A stretch of 64,000 nucleotides of DNA from Actinomycetota bacterium (GTDB taxonomy: Bacteria; Actinomycetota; Acidimicrobiia; Acidimicrobiales; Iamiaceae). Every line of letters starts with the position of its first letter. Position 1 is the first letter of the stretch. The notes beneath the pieces were generated by a model. That model was given only the letters and a program-made list of their open reading frames with translations, did no database searches and had not been told where the DNA came from. Made by a program: the position numbers and the translations under genes. The stretch is from NCBI GenBank assembly GCA_016185275.1, contig JACPNX010000015.1, positions 69,441 through 133,440 on the forward strand. The letters run 5' to 3'. Below are positions 29,178 through 64,000 of the stretch, in pieces.

Positions 29178-29191
29178 GTCGGCGACGGACC

Positions 29192-30478: not shown

Positions 30479-30481
30479 GGC

Positions 30482-46704: not shown

Positions 46705-48060
46705 ATGACCGAGCACGACGCCCTCCTCCGCCGCATCGACGACGCTGCCGACGAGGTCGCCGACGTACTGGCGGGCGCCGGCGGCGGCGAGCCGGGCCGT
46801 GAGGTGCTCACCGAGGCGCGCGAGCACCTCGCCACCGCGTGGCACTCGTCGGCCGCCGGCACCGAGCTGCCGCCCGGGACGCGCCTGCGCCAGGTGAAGC
46901 GCGGTGTGCTGGCCGTGACCCGCCCGCTCACCGCGCAACAGGTGCCCTTCAACCGCGAAGTGGTCGTCGCGGTCGATCGCCTGGCTCGGGTCGTCGACGA
47001 GCTGATCGACCGGGTGGCGCTCACCGAGGACCGCAGCCGCGCCGCCGGCTCACGGATGCAGGCCGCGCTGGCCACCACCGATCTGGCCGTGGACGACCTC
47101 GCCCATGGCGCGCACCGGTTGGCGAGCGCGTTCGACGACGTGGTGGAGCGCGTCGAGCGGCTCGAGCAACGCCTGGCCGACCAGCGCGCCGACGTTCGCG
47201 CCCTGCGCAGCCGCCAGGACATCGTCCTGCGGGCCCTGGCGGACCTCGGCGCGGCGGCCGTTCCGCATGGCGGCGACGGGCCGAGTCCCGCGGTCGGTCC
47301 GGTCGGCCCGGTCGGCCCGTTCCCCGCGGTCGCCTCGGCCGCCGCGGAGCTGGCTGCGGCCACCGACGAGCTCAGCGCGGAGCTGGCCGAGCTGGCCGCC
47401 GGCCCCCGCGACGAGGTGGTGCGGGAGCGGGCCCGCTGGTGGTCCGAGATCGGAGCCGTGCCCGGGGGCGGGCCGGTGGTGGATCTCGCCGCCGGCCGGG
47501 GTGAGTGGCTCGAGGTCCTCGCGGCGCACGAGGTCGAGGCCTGGGGGGTCGAGGCCAACGGCCACCTGAGGGCGCAGGCCCAGCGGCGCGGCCTGGACGT
47601 CCGCGACGAGGATCCGCTCGCGCACCTCGGCGGTCTCGACGAGGCCAGCGTTGGCGCGGTCAGCGCGTTCGGCGGGCTGGCCGGGCGGCTGCGACCGGCC
47701 GCGGTCGCCGAGCTCGTGGATCGGGCGCTGGTGGCTCTGCGCCCGGGTGGTGCCCTCGTGATCGAGGTGCCGAACGTGACCGCCCTGGACGTCGGCGCCG
47801 CCGAGGTCTGGCTCGATCCCCTGCTCGACCGGCCGGCGCACCCCGCCGCGCTCGAGCTACTGGTGCTGGCTCGGGGCTTCGCGGAGGCCGAGGTGCGCTG
47901 GCGTGAGCCCGTCGACGAGGCCTGGCAGCTCCGGGCCGATGACCTCGGCACCCGCGACGGGGCACGCGCCGAGGCGCTCGTCGAGCGCCTCAACCGCCTG
48001 CTCGCCGGGCCGCGGCGGGCCGCGGTCGTGGCCCGCAAGGCGGGAGCGCCGCCGGGGTGA
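46705..48060 (+). CDS. Class I SAM-dependent methyltransferase with a long N-terminal helical/coiled-coil region
   Basis: C-terminal motif I VVDLAAGRGEW, ...LRPGGALVIEVPN. The N-terminal ~240 aa are heptad-like (ERVERLEQRLADQRADVRALRSRQD). The stop overlaps the next start (GTGA). Confidence 0.7.
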   Translation: MTEHDALLRRIDDAADEVADVLAGAGGGEPGREVLTEAREHLATAWHSSAAGTELPPGTRLRQVKRGVLAVTRPLTAQQVPFNREVVVAVDRLARVVDELIDRVALTEDRSRAAGSRMQAALATTDLAVDDLAHGAHRLASAFDDVVERVERLEQRLADQRADVRALRSRQDIVLRALADLGAAAVPHGGDGPSPAVGPVGPVGPFPAVASAAAELAAATDELSAELAELAAGPRDEVVRERARWWSEIGAVPGGGPVVDLAAGRGEWLEVLAAHEVEAWGVEANGHLRAQAQRRGLDVRDEDPLAHLGGLDEASVGAVSAFGGLAGRLRPAAVAELVDRALVALRPGGALVIEVPNVTALDVGAAEVWLDPLLDRPAHPAALELLVLARGFAEAEVRWREPVDEAWQLRADDLGTRDGARAEALVERLNRLLAGPRRAAVVARKAGAPPG

Positions 48061-49286
48061 GCTCGCCTCGCCGCCGCACCCGGCCGCGGCGGATCGCGCT
48101 GCTCAAGCCCGACTTCGGTGTCCACGGTGGCTTCGAGCGCGTCGTGGACCGGGTCGAGGCGACGCTGCGGCGCGACGGCCACGACGTCACGCGGATGGGG
48201 GTCGAGGTCGACTCGCTCAGGTACCGGCGCACCGGACCCTCGGTGCCCGAGGAGCTCTGGGCCGGCGCGCCCGAGTACGCGCGGTACCTGGCGTCGGTGG
48301 CCGCCTTCCGCCGGATCGACACCCGGCTCTACGACGCCGTCGTGTCCACCCAGCCGCCGTCGTTCGCCGCCTCCCATCCACGGCACCTGGCGCTGTTCTT
48401 CCACCACCACCGTGTCTTCTACGACCTCGAAGAGCCGTACCTGGCGGCCGGCTTCGCGGCCGACCCCGGGCTGCACCGCCGAGCCGCCGAACAGGTGCGC
48501 CGGCTCGACCAGCCGCTGCTCGACTCGGTCACTTGGTTCCTCGCCGGCTCCGAGCGGGTCCGCGCCCGGCTGGCCGCGTTCAACGGCATCGACCGCGTGA
48601 GCCTGTTCCAGGCCGGCGTGGGCGTCGGCGACCGACCGCTGCCGCCGTCACCGGTGCCGCCGGCGGCGCGGCGCGGTGCCGTCCTGTGCGTCAGCCGCCA
48701 CGAGTTCCCGAAGCGCACGGAGCTGTTCGTGCTGGCCATGAAGCACCTTCCCGGCGTGGCCGCGGTGGTGGTCGGTTCGGGCGGCCGGCTGCCGTGGGTG
48801 CGCGCCCTCGACCACCGGCTCTCGCAGCCCGGCGTCGACCTCGCCGACGTCGACCCGGTCGGCGTCTGGCGCACAACCGCCGCCGGCCCGCCGCCGGCCC
48901 CCGGGCGCGGGGCGACCAACGTGGAGCTCCTCGGCCGCACCGACGACGCCACGCTCGAGCGCCTCTACGCGGAGGCGCCCTGCCTGGTCGCCCCCGCCTA
49001 CGACGAGGACTACGGCCTCACCGCGCTGGAGGCGATGCGCCACGGCACACCGGTCGTGGTCTGCGACGACGGCGGCGGGCTGGCCACGCTGGTCGACCAC
49101 GAGATCGACGGGCTCGTGGTCGCCCCGGACGGCGCCGCGATCGCCGCCGCCGTCGACCGCATCCTGACCGACACCGACCTGGCCGCGTCGCTGGCTGCCG
49201 CCGGGCGCGCCAAGGCGGCCCGCATCACGTGGGCCCGGGCCGACGAGCAGCTGCGCGACGGCCTCGCCGAGGTGCTGGCGGCGTGA
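48057..49286 (+). CDS. GT4-family (GT-B) glycosyltransferase
   Basis: EDYGLTALEAMRHGTPVVVCDDGGGLATLVDHEIDGLVV is the E-x7-E region of GT4 enzymes. Confidence 0.85.
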   Translation: MSSPRRRTRPRRIALLKPDFGVHGGFERVVDRVEATLRRDGHDVTRMGVEVDSLRYRRTGPSVPEELWAGAPEYARYLASVAAFRRIDTRLYDAVVSTQPPSFAASHPRHLALFFHHHRVFYDLEEPYLAAGFAADPGLHRRAAEQVRRLDQPLLDSVTWFLAGSERVRARLAAFNGIDRVSLFQAGVGVGDRPLPPSPVPPAARRGAVLCVSRHEFPKRTELFVLAMKHLPGVAAVVVGSGGRLPWVRALDHRLSQPGVDLADVDPVGVWRTTAAGPPPAPGRGATNVELLGRTDDATLERLYAEAPCLVAPAYDEDYGLTALEAMRHGTPVVVCDDGGGLATLVDHEIDGLVVAPDGAAIAAAVDRILTDTDLAASLAAAGRAKAARITWARADEQLRDGLAEVLAA

Positions 49287-49350
49287 GGGTCGGGCGCGCC
49301 GAGGTGCGGGCGGCGTGAGGGTCGGCCTCGCCGAGGTGCTGGCGGCGTGA
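49255..49350 (+). repeat. 32-bp tandem triplication of the GT4 gene junction, creating two chained 11-codon mini-ORFs
   Basis: Units ending in TGA at 49286, 49318 and 49350: gcgacggcctcgccgaggtgctggcggcgtga / gggtcgggcgcgccgaggtgcgggcggcgtga / gggtcggcctcgccgaggtgctggcggcgtga. Mini-ORFs are 49283..49318 (VRVGRAEVRAA*) and 49315..49350 (VRVGLAEVLAA*), each joined by GTGA overlaps. Confidence 0.9.
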
Positions 49351-51959
49351 AGGTCGGCATCGTCGCGCCGGCCCCCGTGCCCTACGCACCGGGTGGCGCA
49401 GAGCGGGCCTGGACCGGCCTGCAACGCGCCCTCGGCCGGGCCGGTCACGCCGCCGAGATGGTCACGCGGCCGTTCTCCGAGTCCACCCTCGCCGAGGTGG
49501 TCGACGGCTACCTGCGCTTCGCCGCCCTCGACTTGAGCGGCTTCGACATCGTGATCTCGTCGAAGTACCCGGCGTGGATCGCGCCACATCCCCGCCACGT
49601 CGTCTGGATGTTCCATCCGCTTCGGGGTCTCTACGACACGTACCACACGTTCCGTCTGCCGCCCGCGGTGGAGCCGCGCGAGCCGTCACTGCGGGCTCTC
49701 CTGCGGGCGTGCGCGGCAGCGCCCGAGCGGCGCGCGCTGCCCGAGATCGCGGCGGCGTGGGAGGCGGCCGTGGCCGACGTGGGCGTCGACCACCCGCACC
49801 TCGCGCTGCCGTCGCCCATCGGTCGGGCCGTCGTCCACTGGCTGGACGCAGCGGCCTTGAGCCCCCGGGAGGTGGTCCGGCACCTCGCGCTCTCGCGGAC
49901 GGTGGCGAGCCGCCCGGGGTACCTGCCGCCCGGCGTCGTCCCTCGCATCGCCTACTGCCCCAGCGATCTGCCGGTCGCCGCGCCACCGAGTCCGTCGGCG
50001 CCGCGCCACCTCTTCACGGTCAGCCGCCTCGATGCCGCCAAGCGCGTGGAGCTGGTGGTGCGGGCCATGGCGTCGGTGCCGGGCGACGTGCCGCTCCTCG
50101 TCGGCGGCTCGGGCCCCGAGGCCGACCGCTTGCGCGCCATCGCCGCCGGCGACCGCCGGGTCCGCTTCCTCGGACCGGTCGCCGACGCGGACCTGCCCGA
50201 CCTCTACGCCGGGTCGCTGGCGGTCCCGTTCACCCCCTTGGAGGAGGACTACGGCCTGGTCACGGTGGAGGCCTTCGCCGCCGGCGCGCCGGTCGTGACC
50301 TGCGACGACAGCGGCGGCCCCGCAGAGCTGGTGGTCGACGGCAGCACCGGCCTCGTCGTTCGTCCCGCCCCCCGCGCGGTCGGGGCGGCGCTGGCCCGCC
50401 TCGTGGAGCACCCCGAGGAGGCGCTCGCCATGGGCGCGGCCGGCCGCCGGCGAGCCGCTTCCATCACCTGGGAGCGCACGGTCGACCTGCTGCTGGGCAC
50501 ACCCCGACCGCACCGGGCGCCCGCCGCAGGCCCGAGCCGGGCGGGCCCGAGCCGAGCAGGCCCGAGCCGGGCGGGCCGCGCAGGTGGAGCGGGCGAAGCA
50601 GGTGGAGCGGGCGGAGCAGGTGGAGCAGGCGCGGCCGGACCTGCAGGCCGCGCCGCGGGCGGCGCCGACGTGCTCAGCGCCGCCCGCCACGAGATCCACC
50701 CCGACCAGTCCGGCACCCGCCCCCGGCGGGCCCGCCGCAAGATCGTCGTCGCCAGCACCTACCGGGTCTCCGAGGCCCGCCACGGCGGCCAACTGCGCTG
50801 CTTCCACCTGTACGGAGCGCTGGCGCGCCACGTCGACGTCGAGGTCGTGGCGCTGGTCGACCGCCCCTCCGACGCGGGGCGGACCGTCATGGCGCCCGGG
50901 TTCCGCGAGGTGCGCATCGCCCGCTCGGCGCTGCACCACGCTCGGGACGAGGAGGTCTCGCTGGCCGCCGGCGTGCCGGCGAGCGACATCGTGGCCGCGT
51001 CCGACATCGACGCCTCCCCGGAGTACCTCGCCGCCCTCGGCCGAGCGCTCGACGGCGCGGAGGCCGTCGTGCTCGCCCACCCGTACCTCCTGCCGGCGCT
51101 CGAGTTGCTCGACCGCGGCGTGCCGTTCGTGTACGACGCCCACAACGTCGAAGCGGCGCTCAAGGCCACCGTCCTGAGCGACGACCGGACCGGCCGGCGC
51201 CTGCTGGATCTCGTCCGCGACGTCGAGCGCCGCGCCGTGCAGGGAGCGGTTGCCGTCGTGGCCTGCTCGCCCGACGATGCCCGCACGCTGCGCTCGCTGT
51301 ACGGGGAACCGGCGGGTGCGCTCGTCGTCGTCCCGAACGGCACCGACGCGCGCGTCGACGCGCGGGGACCGGAGCAGCGCGCCGAGCGGCGCGCCCGGTG
51401 GCTCGGGTACTGGCGCTCCACCGACCCCGGCCGGGCGCGGGTCGGGCACGTGGCCGTGTTCTTCGCGTCGTGGCACCCGCCCAACCTCGAGGCGGCACGG
51501 GTCATCATCGGCCTCGCCCCGGCCCTGCCCGAGGTTCTCTTCCTCCTCGGCGGTTCGCACGGTGACGCCTTCGCCGACGGCGCCCTACCGGCCAACGTGG
51601 TCCTGACCGGAGTGGTCGGCAACCGGGCCCGTGACGACCTCCTCGGGCTGGCCGACGTGGCACTGAACCCGATGCTGTCGGGCTCGGGCACCAACCTGAA
51701 GGTCATCGAGTACCTCGCGCACCGGGCCCCGGTCGTGTCGACTCCGGTCGGGGTCCGGGGGCTCGACCTGCGCGACGGCGAGCACCTGCTGGTGGCCCCG
51801 ACCGGGCAGCTCGCGGACGCGATCCGGGCCACGCTGGACGATCCGGTCTCGGCCGCCGCGCGGGCCAGTGCCGGCCGCGCGCTGGTCGAGGCGAGCTACG
51901 ACTGGCGGGCACTCGGCGACCGCTTGGCCGCATCCGTCCCCGGAGCGACCGGCCGGTAG
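49347..51959 (+). CDS. Dual-domain GT4 glycosyltransferase (two GT-B modules joined by a repetitive linker)
   Basis: Module 1 has EEDYGLVTVEAFAAGAPVVTCDDSGGPAELVVDGSTGLVV. Module 2 has ...NPMLSGSGTNLKVIEYLAHRAPVVSTPVGVRGL. The linker is (GPSRA)3 (AGGAGx)3. Confidence 0.8.
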   Translation: MKVGIVAPAPVPYAPGGAERAWTGLQRALGRAGHAAEMVTRPFSESTLAEVVDGYLRFAALDLSGFDIVISSKYPAWIAPHPRHVVWMFHPLRGLYDTYHTFRLPPAVEPREPSLRALLRACAAAPERRALPEIAAAWEAAVADVGVDHPHLALPSPIGRAVVHWLDAAALSPREVVRHLALSRTVASRPGYLPPGVVPRIAYCPSDLPVAAPPSPSAPRHLFTVSRLDAAKRVELVVRAMASVPGDVPLLVGGSGPEADRLRAIAAGDRRVRFLGPVADADLPDLYAGSLAVPFTPLEEDYGLVTVEAFAAGAPVVTCDDSGGPAELVVDGSTGLVVRPAPRAVGAALARLVEHPEEALAMGAAGRRRAASITWERTVDLLLGTPRPHRAPAAGPSRAGPSRAGPSRAGRAGGAGEAGGAGGAGGAGAAGPAGRAAGGADVLSAARHEIHPDQSGTRPRRARRKIVVASTYRVSEARHGGQLRCFHLYGALARHVDVEVVALVDRPSDAGRTVMAPGFREVRIARSALHHARDEEVSLAAGVPASDIVAASDIDASPEYLAALGRALDGAEAVVLAHPYLLPALELLDRGVPFVYDAHNVEAALKATVLSDDRTGRRLLDLVRDVERRAVQGAVAVVACSPDDARTLRSLYGEPAGALVVVPNGTDARVDARGPEQRAERRARWLGYWRSTDPGRARVGHVAVFFASWHPPNLEAARVIIGLAPALPEVLFLLGGSHGDAFADGALPANVVLTGVVGNRARDDLLGLADVALNPMLSGSGTNLKVIEYLAHRAPVVSTPVGVRGLDLRDGEHLLVAPTGQLADAIRATLDDPVSAAARASAGRALVEASYDWRALGDRLAASVPGATGR
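50529..50634 (+). repeat. In-frame tandem repeats in the inter-domain linker: 15-bp x3 followed by 18-bp x3
   Basis: ggcccgagccgggcg / ggcccgagccgagca / ggcccgagccgggcg (50529-50573); caggtggagcgggcgaag / caggtggagcgggcggag / caggtggagcaggcgcgg (50581-50634). Confidence 0.9.
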
Positions 51960-52112
51960 CCTGACCGGCGACCGCCTGCCGCGAGGAGCCCCACGCCCGT
52001 GGTCGACAGCCCAACCCGCCCCGCGCCCGCGGCCACCGGATCCGCGCGCACCGATGCCACCGTCGAGGCGCGCCCCGGCGGAGCCTCCCGCGCCAGCGGC
52101 GAGGTGCGCGAG

Positions 52113-53015
52113 ATGTCGAAGCGCCCGAACCCGCTCGAGCGGGCGGTCAACGTCTGGCGCTACCGCGAGCTGCTCGTGAACCTCACGCGCAAAGAGCTCA
52201 AGGTCAAGTACAAGAACAGCGTCCTCGGGTTCGTGTGGACGCTGCTCAACCCGGCCCTCTACCTCGTCGTGTTCAGCCTGGTCTTCCAGGTCGTGCTCCA
52301 GGTGAAGATCCCCTACTACGGGATCTTCTTCCTGGCGGGACTGCTGGGGTGGAACTTCTTCGCGACGGCCGTGTCGGCCGGGACGACGTCGATCGTGGGC
52401 AACTCCCAGCTCGTGTCGAAGGTGTGGTTCCCCCGCGAGATCCTCCCACTCGCGTCGATCGGCGCGGCGATCTTCCACTTCCTGCTGCAGCTCACCGTGC
52501 TGGCCGCGGCCCTCATCCTCTTCCGGCGGGCCCCCTCGCTGCACTACCTGCCCGCCCTCGTGCCGGCGCTGGTCGTGCTCCTCCTGTTCGCGTCGGCCCT
52601 TGCGATCGCTCTGGCCGCGGTCAACGTCTACCTGCGCGACACGCAGCACCTGCTCGAGCTGGTCCTGCTCGCCTGGTTCTGGATGACGCCGGTGGCGTAC
52701 CCGTACCAGCTCGTGGCCGACCGCCTCGGCCCGGCACGCGAGTGGTGGGCGGCGGCCAACCCGATCCTCACCGTCGTGGTGACGTTCCAGCAGGCCCTCT
52801 ACAACCCCAGCCGTCCGGCCTTCATGTGGCTCAGCAACGGTCCGCGCGATCCGAGCAACGTCGTGCGGGACCAGGTCACGCCGGCGCTGCCCGAGCACCC
52901 CCTCACCTGGTACCTCACCCGGCTCGGGTCGAGCGCGCTGGTCGGCGCGTCGCTGCTCCTCGGCGCGCTCTGGTTGTTCGGCCGGCTCGAGGACAACATG
53001 GCCGAGGAGATCTGA
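52113..53015 (+). CDS. wzm: ABC-2 polysaccharide export permease (Wzm/TagG/KpsM type)
   Basis: VWRYRELLVNLTRKELKVKYKNSVLGFVWTLLNPALYLVVF is the hallmark N-terminus of Wzm/TagG permeases, and there are 6 TM helices. ATG 52113. Confidence 0.85.
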   Translation: MSKRPNPLERAVNVWRYRELLVNLTRKELKVKYKNSVLGFVWTLLNPALYLVVFSLVFQVVLQVKIPYYGIFFLAGLLGWNFFATAVSAGTTSIVGNSQLVSKVWFPREILPLASIGAAIFHFLLQLTVLAAALILFRRAPSLHYLPALVPALVVLLLFASALAIALAAVNVYLRDTQHLLELVLLAWFWMTPVAYPYQLVADRLGPAREWWAAANPILTVVVTFQQALYNPSRPAFMWLSNGPRDPSNVVRDQVTPALPEHPLTWYLTRLGSSALVGASLLLGALWLFGRLEDNMAEEI

Positions 53016-53025
53016 TGCCGGCGGC

Positions 53026-54300
53026 GTGGGGACGGCGGTGAGCACGGCGGTGAGCACGGCCGCCATCGAGATCCACCAGGTGACCAAGTCGTTCAAGCTG
53101 TACCGGGAGAAGGCCCAGTCGGCCAAGGAGCGCGTGATCCGCGCCGGGCGGAACCCGCACACGACGTTCAAGGCGCTCGACGACGTGTCGTTCAGCGTCG
53201 GGACCGGCGAGACGGTGGCGCTCCTCGGCCACAACGGCTCGGGCAAGTCGACGTTGCTCAAGTGCGTGGCCGGCACGCTGCGCCCCACGAGCGGGCGGAT
53301 CGTCACCCGGGGCCGGCTCGCCGCGCTGCTCGAGCTCGGTGCGGGGTTCCACCCGGACCTCACGGGGCGCGAGAACGTCTACCTCAACGGGTCGATCCTC
53401 GGGTTCTCGCACGCCGCCGTGGACCGGATCTTCGACGACATCGTGGAGTTCGCCGAGCTGGAGCAGTTCATCGACAACCAGGTGAAGCACTACTCGTCGG
53501 GCATGTACGCGCGGCTCGGCTTCGCGGTCGCCATCAACGTCGACCCCGACGTGCTGCTCGTCGACGAGGTGCTCTCGGTCGGCGACGAGGCGTTCCAGCG
53601 CAAGTGCCTCGACCGCGTGCAGCGGCTCCAGCGGGAGGGGCGCACGATCCTGCTCGTCAGCCACGCCACCGAGACGGTGCGCCAGGTCGCCGACCGGGTC
53701 GTGGTGCTCGACCACGGGCACATGGTCGTCGACGGCAGGACGGGCGAGGCGATCCGGGCGTTCCGCGAGACGCTCCAGAAGCGCGGCATCCCGCTGCCCG
53801 AGGGGGTCGACGCCCACGTCGACCCGGAGGCGACCGGCGAGGTGCCGGTCGTGCCCGGGCCCGCCTTCGACCACGACCCGTCGGCCACCGTGGCGTTCAA
53901 GGACGTGACCGTCCGCTACCACGAGAAGACCGCGGACCACGCCACCCCCGGAGAACCGCTGTCGATCGAGATCCCGTACCACGCCACCGGCACGATCCGC
54001 GACGTGGTCCTGTCGATCGAGGTGTTCGACGTCGACGGCCACAAGCTCATGGGGACCAACACCGACTTCATCGAGCAGCCGATCGCCGGCATGAAGGGTG
54101 ACGGCACGATCGTGTTGCATCTCGAGACGCTGCCGCTGCTCGACGGTCGCTTCCACCTGCGCCTCGCCTTCCACACCCGCGACGGCGGGCGCGTCTACGA
54201 CGAGCGGGACTTCGTCGACTCGTTCCAGGTGATGAACCCGACCCGGACCCAGGGCACCATCCACCTCCCTGTCCGGGTCGAGCACCTCTACTCGTTCTGA
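53026..54300 (+). CDS. wzt: Polysaccharide export ABC ATPase with a C-terminal extra domain (Wzt/TagH type)
   Basis: Walker A GHNGSGKSTLL, signature YSSGMYARLGFAVA, Walker B LLVDEVLSVGD. About 170 extra C-terminal residues are beta-rich (VAFKDVTVRY...LSIEVFDVDGHKLMG...GRFHLRLAFH), consistent with a Wzt_C-type carbohydrate-binding domain. Start is approximate. Confidence 0.85.
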   Translation: MGTAVSTAVSTAAIEIHQVTKSFKLYREKAQSAKERVIRAGRNPHTTFKALDDVSFSVGTGETVALLGHNGSGKSTLLKCVAGTLRPTSGRIVTRGRLAALLELGAGFHPDLTGRENVYLNGSILGFSHAAVDRIFDDIVEFAELEQFIDNQVKHYSSGMYARLGFAVAINVDPDVLLVDEVLSVGDEAFQRKCLDRVQRLQREGRTILLVSHATETVRQVADRVVVLDHGHMVVDGRTGEAIRAFRETLQKRGIPLPEGVDAHVDPEATGEVPVVPGPAFDHDPSATVAFKDVTVRYHEKTADHATPGEPLSIEIPYHATGTIRDVVLSIEVFDVDGHKLMGTNTDFIEQPIAGMKGDGTIVLHLETLPLLDGRFHLRLAFHTRDGGRVYDERDFVDSFQVMNPTRTQGTIHLPVRVEHLYSF

Positions 54301-54416
54301 GGTGGCGCGGCACGCGGCCGGCGCGGCCTGACCGCGACATCCGTGAGCGCGCCCGGGCTGAGCGGGAGTACCGTCGCCCCGGGCCGGGCGGGGCGCTGGG
54401 CCCAGGAGGGGAACAG

Positions 54417-55829: not shown

Positions 55830-55880
55830 CCACCTGCGGCCGGCCGGCTGGCCGCCGCACCGAGACGAGGAGGAGGCGCC

Positions 55881-56696: not shown

Positions 56697-56832
56697 CCGC
56701 GCGACCGCCAAGAGATCGACGCAGCGTGCGGTGAGGGGGCCTCGCCACGCGCCCACAGTCGTGGTGGGCCGCATACGCTCAAACCGGGCGAACGGCCTCC
56801 GATGGGGACAGGTCCCCGACGAGGAGTCGAGC

Positions 56833-58818
56833 ATGTCGCCCCCAGTCTCCCAGCCGCTTCCCGTCCGATCCGCGGGATCAGACCCGGCCGGCGCCGGACG
56901 ACCGGCGCCGGCTCGGCCGGGCAGGCACCGCCGGCGGCTCGGCCGGTTCGCCGCCGCCCCGGTCGTGCTCACGTTCGCGTGGGCCGTCGTGACCGGCGCG
57001 GTGGTCCCGGCGCGTGCCGGCCAGCCGGGCCGGCTGGAGTCCTCGGTCGTCACCTTGGCCGGCCCGTCCGCCGCGGCGCTGGCGCCGGCGGCCGGCGACG
57101 TGGCCCGCCTGCGCGCCGCCGGCCGCACCGACGCCGAGTCGCCCCGCCGCACGACCGGCGCGGCGACCCGGGGCTGGTCGGGCGCGATCGACGTCACAGA
57201 CGGCACGCAGATGGTCGCCTTCACCTGGAGCGGTGCCGCCGACGGCGCGGTCGAGGTCCGCAGCCGCGAGGGCGGGCGCTGGTCGACCTGGACGCCGGCC
57301 GCTGCCAGCCCCGACGAGGGACCGGACACCGGAGGCAACGGGCGCACCGGCGTCGGCCCCGTGTGGCTCGGCAGCAAGGGCGCGGACCGCGTCGAGGTGC
57401 GGGTGGCTCGAGCCGGCCTGCGCGACCTGCGTATGCGGGCGATGCGCTGGATCGAGCCGGTCGCCGGCACGGGCCCGCAGCCCGCGGGCGCCGAACCGGT
57501 CGGTCCCGGCATCCGGCCCCGCAGCGACTGGGCGCCGGGCGGCTGGGTGTCGTCCAACGCGGGCTGCCCCGCCGCGCCCGAGGTGCAGAGCCAGCTCAAG
57601 TTCGCCGTCGTGCACCACACGGCCAGCAGCAACGACTACACGCCCAGCCAGGTTCCCGGGATCCTCGCCGGCTCGTACCTGTACCAGGTGAAGGACCTCG
57701 GCTGGTGCGACATGGCCTACAACTTCCTCGTCGACAAGTTCGGCACCATCTGGCAGGGCCGCAGCGGCGACATCGGGTTGCCGATCATGGGCGGTCACTC
57801 CAAAGGCTTCAACACCGACAGCATGGGCGTGGCCCTCATCGGCCAGTACCAGCCCGGTGAGTCGCCGGCCGCGGCGCCGCCGACCGCCGCCGAGTTCACC
57901 GCCCTGCGCGAGCTGCTGGCGTGGAAGCTGTGGATGCACCGCATCGATCCGCTCGGCACCGTGACCGTGGTGAGCCGCGGCAACACCAAGTACCGGGACG
58001 GCACGGTCGTCACCCTGCCGACCATCGGCGGCCACCGCGACAACGGCTACACCGCCGACCCCGGCGACCCGGTGTACGCCCGCCTGCCGCAGCTGCGCCT
58101 GGACGTGAAGGCGACGATCGCCGCGGCGGGCGTCGACGGGGCCCGGTGGGCTCCGTTCGCGTCGCCCCAGCAGCTCGCCTCCCGCCAGTACGCGGACTTC
58201 CTCCGGCGGCCGGCCACCAACACGGACGCGGCCTACTGGGCCACGCTCATGGTCCGCAGCGCGAAGACGCCGGCCGGCCAGACCGGCCGCCTCCTCCGCA
58301 GCGCCGAGATGGACAACCGGATCGCACCGGTGGTTCGCCTCTACCTGTCCGCCTTCCTGCGGGCGCCGGACCACCGCGGGTTCGTGTGGTGGCGCGACCA
58401 GATCCTCAGCGGCAAGCAGACGCTGCTGTCGATGGCCGACTTCGTCACGACGAGCAGCGAGTTCCGCCGCCGGTACGGGTCGCTCGGCAACCTCGACTTC
58501 GTGCGCCGCGTCTACCTCAACGTCCTCGGGCGACCGGCCGATGCGGGCGGTCTCGACTACTGGGCCGACCAGCTCACGGCCGGAAGGAGCCGAGGCTGGG
58601 TGCTGCTCGGCTTCTCCGAGGCACAGGAGTTCAAGCGGGCGTCGCGGGCACAGGTCGACGTCGACCTGGTGACCGAGTCGATGCTCGGCCGGACACCGAC
58701 GCAGGCTGGCCTGGACCGCTGGGCGGGCCAGATCCGCTCCGGCACGAGCGTGATCGAGGACCTGATCGCCCTCGACTTCGCGAGCGTCGAGTACCGCCGG
58801 CGCATCACCGGCGCGTAG
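56833..58818 (+). CDS. Secreted N-acetylmuramoyl-L-alanine amidase (Amidase_2/PGRP fold) with a C-terminal DUF4214-type repeat module
   Basis: FAVVHHTASSNDYT...WCDMAYNFLVDKFGTIWQGR...GGHSKGFNTDSMGVALIG...IGGHRD. The tail has RQYADFLRRPA..., VYLNVLGRPADAGGLDYWADQL, MLGRTPTQAGLDRWAGQIRSGTSV. ATG 56833. Confidence 0.85.
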   Translation: MSPPVSQPLPVRSAGSDPAGAGRPAPARPGRHRRRLGRFAAAPVVLTFAWAVVTGAVVPARAGQPGRLESSVVTLAGPSAAALAPAAGDVARLRAAGRTDAESPRRTTGAATRGWSGAIDVTDGTQMVAFTWSGAADGAVEVRSREGGRWSTWTPAAASPDEGPDTGGNGRTGVGPVWLGSKGADRVEVRVARAGLRDLRMRAMRWIEPVAGTGPQPAGAEPVGPGIRPRSDWAPGGWVSSNAGCPAAPEVQSQLKFAVVHHTASSNDYTPSQVPGILAGSYLYQVKDLGWCDMAYNFLVDKFGTIWQGRSGDIGLPIMGGHSKGFNTDSMGVALIGQYQPGESPAAAPPTAAEFTALRELLAWKLWMHRIDPLGTVTVVSRGNTKYRDGTVVTLPTIGGHRDNGYTADPGDPVYARLPQLRLDVKATIAAAGVDGARWAPFASPQQLASRQYADFLRRPATNTDAAYWATLMVRSAKTPAGQTGRLLRSAEMDNRIAPVVRLYLSAFLRAPDHRGFVWWRDQILSGKQTLLSMADFVTTSSEFRRRYGSLGNLDFVRRVYLNVLGRPADAGGLDYWADQLTAGRSRGWVLLGFSEAQEFKRASRAQVDVDLVTESMLGRTPTQAGLDRWAGQIRSGTSVIEDLIALDFASVEYRRRITGA

Positions 58819-58828
58819 GGGCCGCTCT

Positions 58829-59164
58829 TCAGTCGGGGCCTTGCGGGTCGGCTGCCGGCCGGCCCGCGAGCTCGGCCCGCAGGATCTCGATCTCGGCGCC
58901 GAGGTCGGTGCGGGCCCGGGCCAGCTCGGCCCTGAGCCGGGCGGCCTCCTCCTTGGCCGCGTCGATCTCGGGGCGCACCTCGGCCAGGACCTGCTCGCGG
59001 ATGCGGGCCACGACGGGTCGCCCGATGCTGGCCGCGACCCGCACGGCGCGCTGGCGCGCGGCGGCACCCTTGGCCGGCCGGCCCGGCGCCGGCTCGGCGG
59101 TGGCCGCGGTGGTGACGGCGCGCAGGCGCGCCAGGGACGCGGCCGTGATGGCGGGATGGCTCAA
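58829..59164 (-). CDS. Small Ala/Arg-rich helical protein, hypothetical
   Basis: GC3-rich frame; helical segment EIDAAKEEAARLRAELARARTDLGAEIEILRAEL. The TTG start overlaps the upstream TGA (TTGA). Weak support. Confidence 0.4.
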   Translation of the reverse strand: MSHPAITAASLARLRAVTTAATAEPAPGRPAKGAAARQRAVRVAASIGRPVVARIREQVLAEVRPEIDAAKEEAARLRAELARARTDLGAEIEILRAELAGRPAADPQGPD

Positions 59165-60225
59165 CGCTGACCTCCGGGTACCAGGGCGGTGGCGACGCGG
59201 GTCCGGATGCGGGCGACGGCAGGCGTCTCCAGCTCGTCCAGGCGACGGTCGAGGCGATCGGCCAGCGACACCGGCCCTCGGCCGGAACCGGGCCCCGAAG
59301 CGGTCGCGACCGACGTGACGGTCACAGCCTGATCGGCCGGCACGAGACCGAGGTGGCCGCGCAGGCGGTCGGCGGCGCGGGCCATGTCGAGGTGCGCCGC
59401 GGCGTGGGCGCGGGCGGCCCGGCCGAGGGCGGCGGCGCGGCGCTCGTCGCGCGCCAGCGCGGTGGCCTCGGCCGCCAGGGCCTGCTCGAGGGCGGCGCCG
59501 GTCAGCACGGCGTCATCGACCACTACGGCGGGCGGATCGTCGCGCGTGCCGCGCGGATCGGCGACCCCCTCGCCACCCGAGGGCAGCAGCGGCCGCAGCG
59601 TGCCGGCGGTGGCCACGCACGGCGTGCCGAGGGCGAGGCCGGCCGCGAGGTCCGCGGCGTCGCGGACGACGGCGACGGTGCACACGGCCAAGGCGGTCAA
59701 GCGGTCGGGTGGGGCAACGCCGGCGAGGTCGGCGGTCCACGGCTCGGGCAGCCCGGCACGCTGGCGCCAGCGCCGGCGCACGAGGGGTCCGAGGGGCGCC
59801 AGGTCCGGCAGGTCGAGCGCCACGGCCGGGGTCCGGACGCCGCTCGCCCCCGCGCCGGGACCCGCGTCGGCTCCGGCTCCGGCTCCGACGCCGGGGCCGA
59901 CGGGCACGACAGCGGCGGGCAACGCCGAACCCTCCGCCGGGCGGTCGAGCCAGACCGCGACGGGCACGCCCAGGTCGCCCACCGCGTCGAGCCGGTCGGG
60001 GTCCAGCACCAGCACCGCGCGCACCGCCCGCGCGGCGGGAGCGCCCGTCGTACCCGTGGCCGCGGGGCGGCCGGTGCGCGCGTCGAGCGCCGTGATGTCG
60101 ACGTGCCGCGCCAGTGCCCGCACCAGCGCGCGCGCCGCGTTCGGCGTGCCGGGTGCGGCGAGGAGACCGAGGAGCGGCCGACCCTCCTGCCGCTCGGCCG
60201 CGATCGTGGCCGGTGTCGGGGTCAC
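59161..60225 (-). CDS. Hypothetical protein inside the glycosyltransferase cluster
   Basis: Only the C-terminal 354 codons of ORF 59161..61230 look protein-like. GTG 60225 is 2 nt after the upstream TGA, with GGGGAG upstream. No motif recognised. Confidence 0.5.
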   Translation of the reverse strand: MTPTPATIAAERQEGRPLLGLLAAPGTPNAARALVRALARHVDITALDARTGRPAATGTTGAPAARAVRAVLVLDPDRLDAVGDLGVPVAVWLDRPAEGSALPAAVVPVGPGVGAGAGADAGPGAGASGVRTPAVALDLPDLAPLGPLVRRRWRQRAGLPEPWTADLAGVAPPDRLTALAVCTVAVVRDAADLAAGLALGTPCVATAGTLRPLLPSGGEGVADPRGTRDDPPAVVVDDAVLTGAALEQALAAEATALARDERRAAALGRAARAHAAAHLDMARAADRLRGHLGLVPADQAVTVTSVATASGPGSGRGPVSLADRLDRRLDELETPAVARIRTRVATALVPGGQR

Positions 60226-60227
60226 GG

Positions 60228-61244
60228 TCAACGCTCCCCCACCAGTGTGCGCGCCACGGTCGGCCAGTCGAGCCGGGCCACGCGCTCGTGGCCCGCCGCA
60301 CCCATGCGCGCCGCGGCATCGGGGTCGGCGGCGAGGCGGTCGATGGCGGCGCCGATGCCCGCCGGGGTCCCGTCGGTGACCAGCCCGTTGACGCCGTGCT
60401 CCACCCACTCCAGGACACCGCCGCTGTCGGCCGCGGTGATCACGGGCTTGCCGGCGAGGAAGGCCTGGAGGGTGACGTAGCCGTAGTCCTCGTCGTGGGG
60501 CGCGTAGAGGACGGCGAGAGCGCCGGCGAACAGCTCGACGAGGGCGTCGTCGTCGACGTAGCCCGGCATCTCGAGACGATCGAGGACACCGCCCGCGGCC
60601 GCCGCGGCCACCAGGTCGTGGTGCAGCGGTCCGGTGCCGGCGAGCACGGCGCGCACGCCCGAGCGCGCCGCGGCCAGCCCGTCGACGAGGCGGTCGGGAC
60701 GCTTGTTGGCGGCCAGCCGGCAGGGCGTGAAGACGTAGTCGCCGGGCGGGCCGGCGCGCAGGCGGTCGGCGAGCGGGGGTGGGTGGGCCAACGGCACGCT
60801 GTCGAGCCCGTTGAAGCGCGCCAGCCGGTCGCTGACGACACCCGAGATCGTGTAGCGCCGCTCGGCTTCCGCGAGCACCTGCGTGTCCCAGTCGGTGAGC
60901 AGCCGCTGGACCTCGAGGCTGTCGTCGTCGAGCCCGATGTCCGACCACGGTTGGCCGATGGCGTCGTAGGCGGCGCGGTGCTGGTGGATGAGCCACGCCA
61001 CCTTGCGGGGATGGCGCGCGTAGTACGACGGGAAGTTCGTGGTGACGACGAGGTCGGCGTCGAGCGGCAGCAGCCGCCAGGCGGCCGGCGCGTCGAGCAG
61101 CCGCTCGCGGTCCCAGGCCGCCGGCACCGACACCGCCTCGGCCCGGTGACCTTCGGCCTTCAGCGCGCCCACCAACCCCTCCACCAGCATCTCGAGCCCG
61201 CCGCGGGTGAAGGGCACCTGGGCCGCGCACACGAGGACGTCCAC
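60228..61244 (-). CDS. GT4-family glycosyltransferase
   Basis: VDVLVCAAQVPFTRGGLE... and HDEDYGYVTLQAFLAGKPVITAADSGGVLEWVEHGVNGLV (E-x7-E region). GTG 61244. Confidence 0.8.
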   Translation of the reverse strand: MDVLVCAAQVPFTRGGLEMLVEGLVGALKAEGHRAEAVSVPAAWDRERLLDAPAAWRLLPLDADLVVTTNFPSYYARHPRKVAWLIHQHRAAYDAIGQPWSDIGLDDDSLEVQRLLTDWDTQVLAEAERRYTISGVVSDRLARFNGLDSVPLAHPPPLADRLRAGPPGDYVFTPCRLAANKRPDRLVDGLAAARSGVRAVLAGTGPLHHDLVAAAAAGGVLDRLEMPGYVDDDALVELFAGALAVLYAPHDEDYGYVTLQAFLAGKPVITAADSGGVLEWVEHGVNGLVTDGTPAGIGAAIDRLAADPDAAARMGAAGHERVARLDWPTVARTLVGER

Positions 61245-61406
61245 GGCCCCAGCATGTCCGACGGCGGCCGCACCGCCGGACACGCCCCGCCTGGCGGCTC
61301 CGGGGCGGCGGGCGGCGGGCGGCGAGTCGGCGGAGCGGCGCGGGCGGGCCGGCGGCGATCCGGGTGCGACGGGACGGCCGGACCCGGGCACTACGGTGGG
61401 CCGGTC

Positions 61407-62597
61407 GTGGACCACCGCCGCCTCGCCCTCGTGCCGCCGCGCTACGGCAGCGACGTGGTGGGCGGAGCCGAGACCCTGTTGCGGGAGGCGGGCGCCGGGC
61501 TGGCGGCTCGCGGCTGGCAGGTCGACGTGCTGACGACCTGCGCCCGGGACCACTTCACCTGGGCCAACGAGTACCCGCCGGGTGAGCACCACGACGGCGA
61601 CCTGCGCGTGGTGCGGTTCCCGGTCGTGCGCGACACGTCGGGCGCGGACCGGGCGAGGGTCGAGGGCATGCTCGCCCGCGGCGAGAAGCCGGGGCTGGCC
61701 GACCAGGAGGCCTGGCTCAACGACGGCCTGCGCGTGCCCGAGCTGTTCCACCACCTTCTCGACACCGCCGAGCAGTACCGCGCCATCGTCGTGGCGCCGT
61801 ACCTGTTCTGGACCACGCTCGCGTGCGGCCTCGTCGCTCCCGAGCGGACCATCGCCGCCCCCTGCCTCCACGACGAGCCCCACGCCCGCCTCGACGTCTT
61901 CGAGCCGCTGCTGTCGGGCGTCGGGGGCATGTGGATGCAGACCGAGCCGGAGCTCGACCTCCTGGCCAGCATCGCCACCCCGCCTGCCCGGGTCGAGGTC
62001 GTGGGTGAGGGCGTGCCGGTTCCCGACGGGTACGACCCCGACCGGTTCCGCGCCCGGCACGGCCTCGGCGATCGCCGGTTCGTGCTGTGCGGTGGCCGGC
62101 GCGAGGGCGCGAAGGGTTGGGAGGAGCTGCTGCGCGGATGGGCGCGAGCGGTGCGCCGCAACGAGCTCGAGCTCGACCTCGTGACGTTCGGGGTGGGCGA
62201 CGTGCACGCCCCCGAGGACCTCGCGGACCGGGTCCACGACCTCGGCTTCGTCAGCGAGGCCGACCGCGACGACGCCATGGCCGCCGCCGACGCCTACGTC
62301 CAGCCGTCGGTCATGGAGTCGTTCTCGCGCATGATCATGGAGGCGTGGCTGGCGGGCACGCCGGTCATCGGCAACGGGCGCGGGGCCGTCGTTCGGTGGC
62401 ACTGCGAGCGGTCGGGCGCGGGCCTGCTGTACGACGACGACGCCGAGCTCGAGCAGTGCCTGCGCTACGTCGCCGAGGCACCCGACGACGCCGCCACGCT
62501 CGCCAAGCCGGGACGCGACTACGTGCTCGACCGCTACACCTGGCCCGCCGCCCTCGACCGCATGGAGTCGACCATCGAGCGCTGGTTCCCGGCGTGA
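61407..62597 (+). CDS. GT4-family glycosyltransferase
   Basis: RRLALVPPRYGSDVVGGAETLLRE... and MESFSRMIMEAWLAGTPVIGNGRGAVVRWHCERSGAGLLY. Start is GTG 61407 (after GGTGGG) or ATG 61254. Confidence 0.8.
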   Translation: MDHRRLALVPPRYGSDVVGGAETLLREAGAGLAARGWQVDVLTTCARDHFTWANEYPPGEHHDGDLRVVRFPVVRDTSGADRARVEGMLARGEKPGLADQEAWLNDGLRVPELFHHLLDTAEQYRAIVVAPYLFWTTLACGLVAPERTIAAPCLHDEPHARLDVFEPLLSGVGGMWMQTEPELDLLASIATPPARVEVVGEGVPVPDGYDPDRFRARHGLGDRRFVLCGGRREGAKGWEELLRGWARAVRRNELELDLVTFGVGDVHAPEDLADRVHDLGFVSEADRDDAMAAADAYVQPSVMESFSRMIMEAWLAGTPVIGNGRGAVVRWHCERSGAGLLYDDDAELEQCLRYVAEAPDDAATLAKPGRDYVLDRYTWPAALDRMESTIERWFPA

Positions 62598-64000
62598 GCG
62601 CCACCGACGGGTCGCGGACCGAGCCGCCGCGCGCCGCCGCGCGCCCGCGCGAGCCGGCGACCCCCGCGCGACCGGCGACGCCGGCGACGCCGGCAACCCC
62701 GGCCCGGCCGGCGCAACCGGCGACGCCCGCGCGACAGCGGATCCTCGTGGTCACGCCGTACGCACCCCAGCGCGACGGCATCGGCAGCTACGCCCTCCAG
62801 CACGTCAAGCGGTTGCGGGGCGCGGGGCACCACGTCGAGGTCTGCTCGCCGCGCCCCTCCGCGGCGCACCACCACCTCGACCTCGCCACGCCGGCCGGGC
62901 TCGGCGCCCTGGCCCGGTTGGCACGCGGGTTCGACAGGGTGCTGGTGCAGTTCCACCCCGACTACTTCTACCGGTGGCCGGCCACGCCGGCGGGCAAGGC
63001 GTCCACCGCCGTCGGCCTCGGAGTCGCCCTGCGCGCCGGGGGCGACAGCGAGCTTCGGCTGCACGAGTTCGACTGGCGGTGGGCGAACACGAGCGACCCC
63101 ACCGCGCCGCTCACCCGTTGGATGCTGCGCGGCGCCGACCGCATCTCGGTCCATTCGGCCGAGTGGCGCACGATGCTGATCGAGCGCTTCCGGGTGCCCG
63201 CCGCGAAGGTCGTCGTTGTCGACCACGGCGCCGACTTCCTGCGCCGCACGACCGCGGACCGCGCCAGCGCCCGAGCGACGTTGGGACTGCCCGCCGACGG
63301 CCACGTCCTGCTGTGCATCGGCTTCCTCGCCCCGCACAAGGGCTTCGACCGCGCCGCTCGCGCCTTCGAGGCCGCGGGTCTGGCGGAGCGCGGTGCGCGT
63401 CTCGACATCGTCGGGTCGGTGCGCGTCGACGACCCGCGCGTCACCGACCACGTCGACGAGCTGCGCCATCTGGCCCGCACGATCGAAGGCGTCCATCTGC
63501 ACACCGGCTACGTGAGCGACGAGGTCTTCGACCGCTGGATCGTCGCGGCCGACACGGTGGTGCTCCCGTACCGCCACATCTGGTCCTCCAGCGTCGCCGA
63601 GCGTGCCGCCCTCTACGACCGGGCCGTCATCGCCTCGGACCTCGAGGGCCTGGCCGAGCAGCTCGCCGGCCTGCCCCGCGTGTCGCTGGTCGGCGACGCC
63701 CGCGCCCTCGCCGCCGCCATGGCCGCCGCGGTGCAGGGCGGCCTCGATGGCGCGCCGGGACCGGTCGCCGGCTCGGAGCGCGCCGCGGAGCGCGCCCCGG
63801 GATCCACCACGGCGATCGACCGGGCCGTGGCCGCCGGTGCACGTCCCGGCAGCGGCACGGTCGTGGCCACGCCGTGGCCCGCCGGCAGCGAGCGCGAGGC
63901 CGTGCAGGCGGCGATCCGCGAGCGAGCCATCCGCGAACGCGGTGGTCCCGCGCGCACGGCCGGCCGCGACGGCGCGCCGGGCGCGTCCCCGTCGGCCCCG
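62594..64000 (+). CDS. GT4-like glycosyltransferase, 3' end beyond the window
   Basis: Not in the ORF track (no stop in window). Hand translation from GTG 62594 (GTGA overlap with the previous stop) stays open for 469 codons: Pro/Ala/Thr-rich leader, then RILVVTPYAPQRDGIGSYALQHVKRLR... and ...LLCIGFLAPHKGFD...VVLPYRHIWSSSVAERAALYDRAVIASD. Confidence 0.7.
   Translation, partial: MSATDGSRTEPPRAAARPREPATPARPATPATPATPARPAQPATPARQRILVVTPYAPQRDGIGSYALQHVKRLRGAGHHVEVCSPRPSAAHHHLDLATPAGLGALARLARGFDRVLVQFHPDYFYRWPATPAGKASTAVGLGVALRAGGDSELRLHEFDWRWANTSDPTAPLTRWMLRGADRISVHSAEWRTMLIERFRVPAAKVVVVDHGADFLRRTTADRASARATLGLPADGHVLLCIGFLAPHKGFDRAARAFEAAGLAERGARLDIVGSVRVDDPRVTDHVDELRHLARTIEGVHLHTGYVSDEVFDRWIVAADTVVLPYRHIWSSSVAERAALYDRAVIASDLEGLAEQLAGLPRVSLVGDARALAAAMAAAVQGGLDGAPGPVAGSERAAERAPGSTTAIDRAVAAGARPGSGTVVATPWPAGSEREAVQAAIRERAIRERGGPARTAGRDGAPGASPSAP

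Follow-up and report, generated by a model that had tools for sequence, protein, structure and literature searches.

Does a monoderm actinobacterium make a cell-envelope glycan whose chains are capped inside the cell and only then handed to an ATP-binding cassette (ABC) transporter? The question is raised by a gene cluster in a 64,000-nucleotide stretch of DNA, hereafter the window, from an Iamiaceae genome of the order Acidimicrobiales (GenBank assembly GCA_016185275.1, contig JACPNX010000015.1, positions 69,441–133,440; G000:C14:69441-133440 in our numbering). The assembly comprises 3.44 Mb in 50 contigs and is 92.7% complete, and to our knowledge the wall glycopolymers of the Acidimicrobiia are essentially uncharacterised. 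Positions 46705–54300 form one plus-strand operon that encodes, in this order, an S-adenosylmethionine (SAM) methyltransferase (MT) with a long helical N-terminus, a glycosyltransferase of family GT4, a dual-module GT4, the permease Wzm and the ATPase Wzt. We read this cluster as an ABC-transporter-dependent, capped cell-envelope glycan pathway of monoderm, Iamiaceae-type Acidimicrobiia, working by the mechanism proposed below, and we put the probability of this reading at about 0.6.

Since shadow frames crowd the raw lists of open reading frames (ORFs) at the 70–77% G+C of the window, genes were assigned first from codon-position GC and then from domain hits. Domains were called with Pfam at gathering thresholds and with NCBIfam at curated cut-offs, and structures were compared through AlphaFold models and Foldseek searches against the Protein Data Bank (PDB). 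Relatives were sampled at the level of the order (G001–G040, i.e., 24 genomes from the family and 16 from other families of the order), alongside 14 control genomes. Synteny was inspected in five relatives from four genera (G010, G011, G012, G018 and G020), one of which, Aquihabitans sp. McL0605 (G012, NZ_CP188252.1), is a family-level relative. A cross-phylum scan with one genome per species yielded 80 loci with homologues of the MT family, from Actinomycetota, Pseudomonadota, Acidobacteriota, Verrucomicrobiota, Cyanobacteria, Desulfobacterota, Firmicutes and other phyla.

A first-pass annotation, made from the DNA letters alone, had called the genes starting at 52113 and 53026 wzm and a wzt with a β-rich tail, and had likened the tail to a carbohydrate-binding domain (CBD) to be checked against PF14524; these identifications held at each level of comparison. 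The permease matches ABC2_membrane (Table 1). In Wzt, an ABC_tran nucleotide-binding domain (NBD; residues 51–182, 80.6 bits) is followed by a Wzt_C domain (PF14524; residues 300–413) that scores 44.3 bits against a cut-off of 30.4, and 47 bits in a scan of the whole genome, where it is the only Wzt_C. The AlphaFold model (28 sequences; predicted local distance difference test, pLDDT, 87.7) consists of the NBD, a disordered linker at residues 262–280 and an all-β domain at 289–422 with values of ~90–97. Its top Foldseek matches are full-length WzmWzt of Aquifex aeolicus (~405 columns, E 5e-37), and at the sequence level residues 14–415 align to the full-length A. aeolicus Wzt including its CBD (8dku/7k2t, 2e-57). 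The NBD also matches the mycobacterial galactan exporter (PDB 9qfx, 4e-42), NCBIfam galactan models are among the hits, and Wzm weakly matches NF050109 (galactan Wzm).

The MT would supply the cap. It is laid out as a conserved N-terminal motif (KR..RP.T..Q..FN), ~125 residues of heptad-like helix, a disordered linker (residues 186–206) and a 3DLI-type SAM-MT domain (207–451). The N-terminus had been described as long, helical and heptad-like, and structure prediction bore this out: AlphaFold (mean pLDDT 79.5) makes the first ~205 residues helical (2–24, 30–49, 62–121 and 126–185), the last two helices measuring 60 residues each. Across residues 62–185, family-averaged hydrophobicity is strongest at a period of 3.5 residues, as heptads predict, and the family profile also matches coiled-coil proteins in the PDB. 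A class I SAM-MT makes up the C-terminal ~245 residues; it is related to PDB 3dli by single-sequence phmmer (1e-15), by a 23-sequence family profile (1e-57, residues 203–447) and by fold (Foldseek 4e-17, TMt 0.80), and the alignment contains both the C-terminal LN..L.GP..YA..A.K and the GRGEW motif I of the 3DLI-like family. With an extension of 205 residues, where at least 150 define membership, the protein belongs by domain, extension and neighbourhood to a family of 3DLI-like, helically extended, wzm/wzt-linked SAM methyltransferases. Its nearest homologues come from Acidimicrobiales metagenome-assembled genomes (MAGs), and some homologues carry the JGI label “O-antigen chain-terminating methyltransferase”. 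Between two invariant anchors, the Asn of Q..FN and the Gly of FRGS before the MT domain, 23 homologues differ in distance, with values of 118 to 165 residues, a variation that fits a spacer but proves nothing; in the 80 loci, the distance from the upstream stop codon to the MT-domain match, an upper bound on extension length, is mostly 138–640 residues.

The enzyme had also been compared with WbdD, the terminator of Escherichia coli O8/O9a, and as a statement of homology this did not survive. No WbdD chain turned up with phmmer at E ≤ 1, among the 60 listed matches of the family profile or among the best 50 Foldseek matches; the MT domain is 3DLI-like and its coil N-terminal. On these comparisons the kinship appears no closer than the common Rossmann fold, and the MT is WbdD-like at most by analogy. 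Nor was a C-terminal amphipathic membrane helix found: the protein ends with its MT domain and has no detected hydrophobic segment. As a conjecture, the N-terminal KR..Q..FN motif may stand in place of the membrane- and WbdA-recruiting end of WbdD-type proteins. A second copy of this motif in the helical tail of the last GT4 of the cluster was considered and rejected (BLASTP E 0.24), a motif hidden Markov model (HMM) run on the whole genome in six frames finding the MT alone.

The association of these genes recurs well beyond the window. Of the 24 family genomes, 21 have the MT, as do 4 of the 16 genomes that represent other families of the order. MT, GT4 and dual GT4 are syntenic in all five relatives inspected, with orthologues of the GT4 at 48057–49286 directly after the MT (52–68% identity) and full-length orthologues of the dual GT4 (44–51%); G010 has these three genes, and in the other four (G011, G012, G018, G020) wzm and wzt follow directly, the wzm orthologues at 57–69% identity. 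Across phyla, a Wzt NBD lies within 10 kb of the MT homologue in 41 of 80 loci. Among the Wzt ORFs near MT-family genes that are uncut by a contig end, 37 of 39 carry a tail of 153–206 residues, and each of ten sampled tails, which represent nine lineages, proved to be a Wzt_C domain (74–136 bits). Nothing else speaks as strongly as this tail linkage for a role of the MT family in the cap-dependent branch of the ABC pathway; together with the core synteny, the linkage supports the division of labour among terminator, CBD and polymerase that the first-pass annotation had guessed from a single cluster. Within the order, Wzt_C occurs in 38 of 41 sampled genomes as opposed to 2 of 14 controls; a cap-reading exporter looks near-universal in this Gram-positive order.

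Polymerisation would fall to the three GT4 modules that the core operon encodes in two proteins. The 870-residue dual GT4 has a WbdA/WbpX-like architecture, i.e., a multi-module GT4 beside candidate terminator and transporter genes, and is the candidate polymerase. In the PDB it best matches generic GT4 enzymes (sucrose-phosphate-synthase-like, WbaZ, MshA and PimB'), and donor specificity cannot be read from its sequence. An NCBIfam scan of the GT4, GT2 and membrane proteins gave only matches far below curated cut-offs, and no specific function could be assigned from it. The MT stop and the start of the first GT4 overlap by 4 nt, read from the coordinates as translational coupling, and wzm and wzt are 10 nt apart. 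Two sets of tandem repeats lie in the dual-GT4 region. A 32-bp unit (3.1 copies, 89% matches; 49259–49358) spans the stop of the preceding GT4 and the GTG start of the dual GT4, producing the GTGA stop/start junction three times and two 11-codon mini-frames between the genes; and the linker between the two modules contains in-frame arrays of 15 bp (3.3 copies) and 18 bp (3.4 copies) at 50529–50631.

Which sugar is polymerised? Because manB, PGI/PMI and a polyprenyl-phosphate-sugar synthase had been seen upstream, a mannose-rich glycan had been suggested. The genes are indeed there, the synthase as a GtrA-GT2 fusion (Table 1), but manB and PGI/PMI are general enzymes, and mannose is not specifically indicated. 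The row that includes manB, PGI/PMI and the S-adenosylhomocysteine hydrolase recalls the mycobacterial pmmA-manA...sahH neighbourhood, and probably serves housekeeping functions outside the cluster. No ManC of the bifunctional TIGR01479 type was found in the genome, the short actinobacterial type not having been searched for. It does encode Gmd (455 bits, curated cut-off 415) and, adjoining it, an Rmd that, among solved structures, best matches the GDP-6-deoxy-D-lyxo-4-hexulose reductases 2pk3 (3.5e-70) and 6x3b (1e-55), so that GDP-D-rhamnose can be made. Orthologues of rmd are present in 21 of 24 family genomes at 70–80% identity; they lie ~2 kb from the Wzt_C gene in seven relatives (G001, G006, G007, G008, G010, G014, G019), 11 kb from it in G011, and directly against wzm in an Iamiaceae MAG (L037). 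In loci from other phyla, gmd is within 10 kb of the MT homologue in 19 of 80 cases. A polymer containing D-rhamnose is at least as likely as a polymannan, judging from the presence of Gmd and Rmd, from the position of rmd near wzt in relatives and from the nearest solved transporter, that of A. aeolicus, which exports a D-Rha/D-Man polymer (PMC9445017). Whole-cell sugars of an Iamiaceae-related isolate comprise rhamnose, ribose, mannose and galactose, their configuration not determined (PMC12263773). A galactofuranan was set aside, no Glf being found in the genome. The gmd-rmd pair belongs to a second glycan locus (G000:C31:110000-121100) with a WcaI-like GT4, Gmd, a helix-turn-helix protein and Rmd; this locus also contains a pair of GT2 and small methyltransferase genes, paralogous to a pair that lies just past the window end.

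Several observations weigh against the capped-pathway reading, or against its simplest form. In A. aeolicus the CBD reads a 3-O-methyl D-Rha/D-Man cap, the methyl group sitting in a pocket lined by L300, T346, A348 and W362, over which a trap loop closes (PMC9445017). A HMMER alignment places E332, R379, A381 and E393 of the window Wzt at these positions and makes its trap loop 2–3 residues shorter. The methyl-stacking Trp is replaced, and other pocket residues are missing too, in eight of eight actinobacterial CBDs (the window plus L029, L032, L036, L037, L054, L071 and L075), which also share the shorter loop (window Wzt residues 331–394, 54016–54207), whereas the 20 non-actinobacterial CBDs of the same 28-sequence alignment keep the Trp, shifted by one position in L076. 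As aligned, the actinobacterial domains form a Trp-less subclass, and their cap, or its way of being read, may differ from that of A. aeolicus. The mismatch limits the A. aeolicus analogy and not Wzt_C family membership, because pockets vary among characterised CBDs with different caps; it nevertheless lowers our confidence in the simple account of a methyl cap read by the CBD to somewhat better than even.

Other adverse points concern the MT and the sugar supply. The monomer AlphaFold model packs the two long helices as a hairpin whose turn (residues 115–127) has a pLDDT below 50, and so modelled the coil gives no support for an extended ruler; the structure prediction that had been proposed as a check thus returned the helical N-terminus and the SAM-MT fold, and not an extended coil. 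The window MT is the most divergent sequence of its alignment: motif I (residues 260–267) reads DLAAGRGEW, where the family has D.GCGRGEW, its first Gly becoming Ala, the family HVVEHL stretch (~322–328) is GGLAGRL with a one-residue insertion, and Pfam MT models score below their cut-offs (Methyltransf_23, 25.2 bits under 27). The MT family is itself uncharacterised, the homologous structure, 3DLI, being a structural-genomics protein of unknown substrate. As for D-rhamnose, gmd and rmd of this genome are on another contig (C31) than the cluster, and RmlC, which was not found in the 92.7%-complete genome, is present in 21 of 24 family relatives, so that L-rhamnose may yet serve the family. An exclusion of L-rhamnose through the missing RmlC was dropped for this reason, a gap in the assembly being possible.

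The CBD findings in particular would suit a pathway that is ABC-dependent without the MT being its terminator: the MT would methylate internal residues or another substrate, its helical N-terminus would only dock, and the CBD would read another cap, e.g., a terminal sugar from an extra GT4 or an anionic group. The exchange of L300, T346 and W362 for E332, R379 and E393 makes for a more polar, charged site, as such a cap might require. Many genomes of the order in which Wzt_C is near-universal have no MT found, so that the MT is not the sole possible partner of such CBDs and other terminators must exist in the order; yet where the MT family does occur, its association with Wzt_C is very tight across phyla (the 37 of 39 above). 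Precedents point both ways. Methyltransferases of the Pseudomonas aeruginosa common polysaccharide antigen (CPA) locus did not act as chain-length regulators, unlike WbdD, and a glycosyltransferase was proposed as terminator there (PMC3560663), and the terminators of Klebsiella pneumoniae O12 and O4 are glycosyltransferases (PMC11231755); on the other side, a coiled-coil protein, such as the MT extension suggests, is described by the Whitfield laboratory as a marker or hallmark of terminators (PMC11231755). The MT moreover heads the operon, is translationally coupled to the GT4, and has no rival of comparable length among coiled-coil proteins of the conserved core. On balance we find this alternative doubtful, though it deserves to be kept in view.

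A second alternative leaves capping and export unchanged and concerns the acceptor, which would be a protein (of the surface layer, S-layer, or another surface glycoprotein) or a lipid anchor, as in Geobacillus and Aneurinibacillus, and not peptidoglycan. On other contigs, the genome has four matches to the LCP family, two strong ones to PF00953 (MraY/WecA type) and two to Wzy_C. The Wzy_C pair, O-antigen-ligase/oligosaccharyltransferase-like, would serve a non-peptidoglycan acceptor, but neither gene is on the contig of the cluster, and the four LCP-family genes speak for the wall. The Rmd is most similar to that of Aneurinibacillus thermoaerophilus (2pk3), an organism that builds its D-rhamnose into an S-layer glycan; near the cluster, no gene for an S-layer protein was recognised. 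Large polytopic membrane proteins in and beside the cluster would likewise fit such a route. One is the GT2-polytopic protein, divergent from the core operon (hydropathy segments at residues 316–822 and 1071–1089), whose gene adjoins the MT gene in three of five relatives (G011, G012, G020; 48–59% identity) and which might act as an adaptor, a primer enzyme or another synthase. Another is the 621-residue membrane protein past the window end, with no Pfam or NCBIfam match, found in 17 of 24 family genomes, adjoining wzt in G006, G014 and G019 and lying 2–4 kb from rmd in four others; to go by this neighbourhood it probably belongs to the same system, at a late extracytoplasmic step, as a candidate transferase or ligase. 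The conserved amidase-DUF4214 protein of the cluster, with one hydrophobic segment (residues 73–96), is a peptidoglycan amidase and points to the wall; its gene recurs in three of five relatives: in G011 and G012 it lies 1–5 kb past wzt, and in G020 the distance to wzt is ~10 kb. A non-peptidoglycan acceptor therefore seems improbable to us. DUF4214 repeats end both secreted proteins that flank the core operon, at 43063–45237 (minus strand) and 56731–58818 (plus strand), and in a distant MT homologue (P0041) DUF4214 is fused to the methyltransferase itself.

That the MT gene is in decay or its product catalytically inert, retained for the scaffold that the coil provides while uncapped polymer is exported, is very improbable, since the motif losses and low Pfam scores of the MT, and a window CBD that scores lowest of those compared (44 as opposed to 74–136 bits), are set against an intact frame with strong third-position GC bias, an MT domain modelled at pLDDT >90, retention of the acidic SAM-binding positions D260 and E283, and relatives at 45–48% identity that partly share the motif I and HVVEHL divergence.

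Under the capped, ABC-dependent reading, synthesis would start on a polyprenyl-diphosphate-linked primer, the product of a WecA/TagO-type enzyme whose gene lies elsewhere. Working at the cytoplasmic face, the GT4 modules would extend this primer from GDP-sugars into a homopolymer or short-repeat polymer, with D-rhamnose and/or D-mannose as leading candidates. The N-terminal helical region would tether the MT to the polymerase complex, and the MT would O-methylate the non-reducing terminal sugar, at which point elongation would stop; a role of the helical spacer's length in setting that of the chain is speculation. Binding of the modified end by the Wzt CBD would then license export through Wzm-Wzt. 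Once outside, the chain may receive decorations by way of polyprenyl-phosphate-sugar synthases and large polytopic (GT-C-like) proteins before its final transfer to an acceptor, most likely to peptidoglycan via an LCP enzyme. A bolder form, which we offer only tentatively and think unlikely to hold in full, makes cap-and-export an order-wide Gram-positive trait: in Iamiaceae, a terminator of reversed polarity (N-terminal docking motif, variable coiled-coil spacer, distal C-terminal MT) would both measure and cap a D-rhamnose-rich wall polymer, the Trp-less CBD subclass would read its end unlike the solved Gram-negative CBDs, and the flanking DUF4214 repeats, including those of the amidase, would bind the exported polymer.

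Table 1 Predicted genes of the window and of its continuation past the 3' end (aa, amino acids; TM, transmembrane)
Feature	Position	Strand	Match or remark
manB, Trm112-like small gene, PGI/PMI and S-adenosylhomocysteine hydrolase in a row	24030-29222	-	
PGI/PMI	26315-27430		upstream of cluster
manB	27828-29222		upstream of cluster
GtrA-GT2 fusion	29192-30481		upstream of cluster
GT2 with ~9-10 TM helices and external C-terminal region, 1103 aa	39003-42314	-	Pfam GT2 at residues 70-284
Secreted FG-GAP β-propeller protein ending in DUF4214 repeats	43063-45237	-	
SAM methyltransferase (MT) with predicted coiled coil, candidate chain terminator, 451 aa	46705-48060	+	
GT4, single module, 409 aa	48057-49286	+	Glycos_transf_1 69 bits, Glyco_transf_4 29 bits
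Dual-module GT4, candidate polymerase, 870 aa	49347-51959	+	two Glycos_transf_1; Glyco_transf_4 at 481-668
wzm, ABC-2 permease	52113-53015 (alternative start 51999)	+	ABC2_membrane 51.9 bits
wzt, ABC ATPase with C-terminal β-sandwich	53026-54300	+	ABC_tran, Wzt_C
FAD-dependent oxidoreductase, 470 aa	54417-55829	+	match to N-terminal FAD-binding motif only
α/β hydrolase, 271 aa	55881-56696	+	Abhydrolase_1 116.6 bits
N-acetylmuramoyl-L-alanine amidase with two DUF4214 repeats, secreted or membrane-anchored	56731-58818	+	Amidase_2 53.5 bits, DUF4214 102.5 bits
Small Ala/Arg-rich helical ORF, 111 aa	58829-59164	-	codon-position GC pattern; last of minus-strand trio
355-aa hypothetical protein, degenerate GT-B-like	59161-60228	-	
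GT4	60228-61304 (start uncertain, 61304 or 61244)	-	Glycos_transf_1 71.4 bits, frame plot
GT4, 396 aa	61407-62597	+	Glyco_trans_1_4 49.5 bits; first of divergent plus-strand operon
GT4, 577 aa in all	62594->64000	+	ends at window-equivalent 64327
621-aa polytopic membrane protein	L003:2852-4717 (window-equivalent 64411-66276)		beyond window
Ppm1/GtrB-like GT2, then 190-aa methyltransferase			beyond window, 3' of membrane protein

Downstream of the core operon the composition is less uniform across relatives (Table 1). The FAD oxidoreductase and the α/β hydrolase gave no tblastn match in the loci of the five relatives, and their membership is doubtful for that reason. Three minus-strand genes follow at 58829–61304 (frame plot). 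Of these, the GT4 (60228–61304) has an orthologue in Aquihabitans (62% identity), and the 111-residue ORF has no Pfam match. The GT4 at 61407 and the genes onward from it had no match in the five relatives within the ~20 kb nearest the core. The last GT4 has a Pro/Thr-rich N-terminus and a tail that is briefly helical and then Gly/Asp-rich, and the cluster continues past the window end, where the rest of this gene and four others lie.

Six GT4 genes with seven domains had originally been counted; Pfam supports five genes and six modules, and the sixth is the 355-residue hypothetical protein, for which neither Pfam nor NCBIfam has a match. A word-based homologue search returned the query alone, and an exhaustive one 44 remote homologues, including one in Aquihabitans directly downstream of the GT4 orthologue. 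The profile of this family touches only the C-terminal halves of GT4 enzymes in the PDB (E 0.003–0.02), and 10 of 27 homologues match Glyco_trans_1_2 (PF13524). These weak similarities suggest a fast-evolving, degenerate GT-B-like partner protein, probably non-catalytic.

Cap-and-export is well established in Gram-negative bacteria, and the present cluster is an extension of it, not a new principle. Mann, Kimber and Whitfield (Glycobiology 29:822, 2019; cited in PMC11231755) reportedly surveyed the strategy bioinformatically. What the locus adds is the prediction, with genes named, of a capped, ABC-exported, homopolymer-like glycan in actinobacteria that are abundant in soil, freshwater and the sea. 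The link between the MT family and the CBD reaches many loci for O antigens, exopolysaccharides and S-layer glycans beyond this genome, and the MT, with its domains in reverse order, and the Trp-less CBD are useful specimens for studying how a chain end is measured and read.

How does the cluster compare with systems already known? With E. coli O8/O9a (equivalent to K. pneumoniae O5/O3) it shares the set of parts, i.e., a terminator candidate (here with a predicted coiled coil), a multi-module GT4, and Wzm with a Wzt bearing a β-sandwich, and a polyprenol-linked chain worked on inside the cell, as is taken to hold here too (PMC11231755, PMC3482155). WbdD has its catalytic domains at the N-terminus and its membrane- and polymerase-binding end at the C-terminus (PMC11231755), whereas the window protein puts the coil first and the MT last, draws its MT domain from another family, and has neither the kinase nor the C-terminal amphipathic membrane helix. 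The host also differs, being monoderm without a lipid A-core acceptor, and its sugar may be D-rhamnose instead of mannose.

The CPA of Pseudomonas and the TET operon of Pseudomonas syringae likewise place a stand-alone SAM-MT beside a CBD-bearing Wzt and a dual GT4, with a link to gmd/rmd (PMC7820976, PMC3560663; for P. syringae by description). Their polymer is a D-rhamnan built from GDP-D-Rha that Gmd/Rmd supply. The TET operon runs wzm, wzt, SAM-MT (named wbdD) and dual GT4 (wbdA), and a transposon mutant in its MT is listed as having rough lipopolysaccharide (LPS; PMC7820976). A Pseudomonas locus with wzm, a wzt carrying Wzt_C and an MT homologue (L082) was itself recovered with the window MT family as query. 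Here the MT comes first, in Pseudomonas after wzt, and the window acceptor is not LPS; the Pseudomonas homologue gave no detectable match to the N-terminal KR..Q..FN motif conserved among the actinobacterial MTs. WzmWzt of A. aeolicus (7k2t, 8dku) is the nearest solved homologue of the window Wzt over NBD and CBD together, differing in the cap-pocket residues and the longer trap loop, which the window protein does not keep.

Among actinobacteria, the galactan Wzm-Wzt of mycobacteria (Rv3783/Rv3781 type; 9qfx) is alike in exporting a polyprenol-carried wall polymer; its Wzt has no CBD (chains of 260–263 residues) and its export is not cap-dependent, in contrast to the window Wzt with its CBD. 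Among Gram-positive bacteria, ABC-dependent S-layer glycan pathways include that of Geobacillus stearothermophilus, in which WsaE makes a methyl-rhamnosyl cap, and that of the D-rhamnose glycan of Aneurinibacillus. These share with the window a Gram-positive host and the ABC route, as well as, by prediction for the window, a terminal sugar that is methylated and D-rhamnose from Gmd/Rmd; the Rmd here has the Aneurinibacillus enzyme as its best PDB match. The MT of the S-layer pathways is a domain of a multifunctional rhamnosyltransferase and their acceptor an S-layer protein, whereas neither an S-layer gene nor a nearby oligosaccharyltransferase was recognised for the window. Overall, the likeness to E. 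coli O8/O9a drawn by the first-pass annotation stands for the set of parts and gives way for the rest: with D-rhamnose at least as likely as mannose, the closer analogues are the D-rhamnan systems of Pseudomonas CPA and TET and the O antigen of A. aeolicus, and it is to these that the cluster is nearer than to the O8/O9a polymannan.

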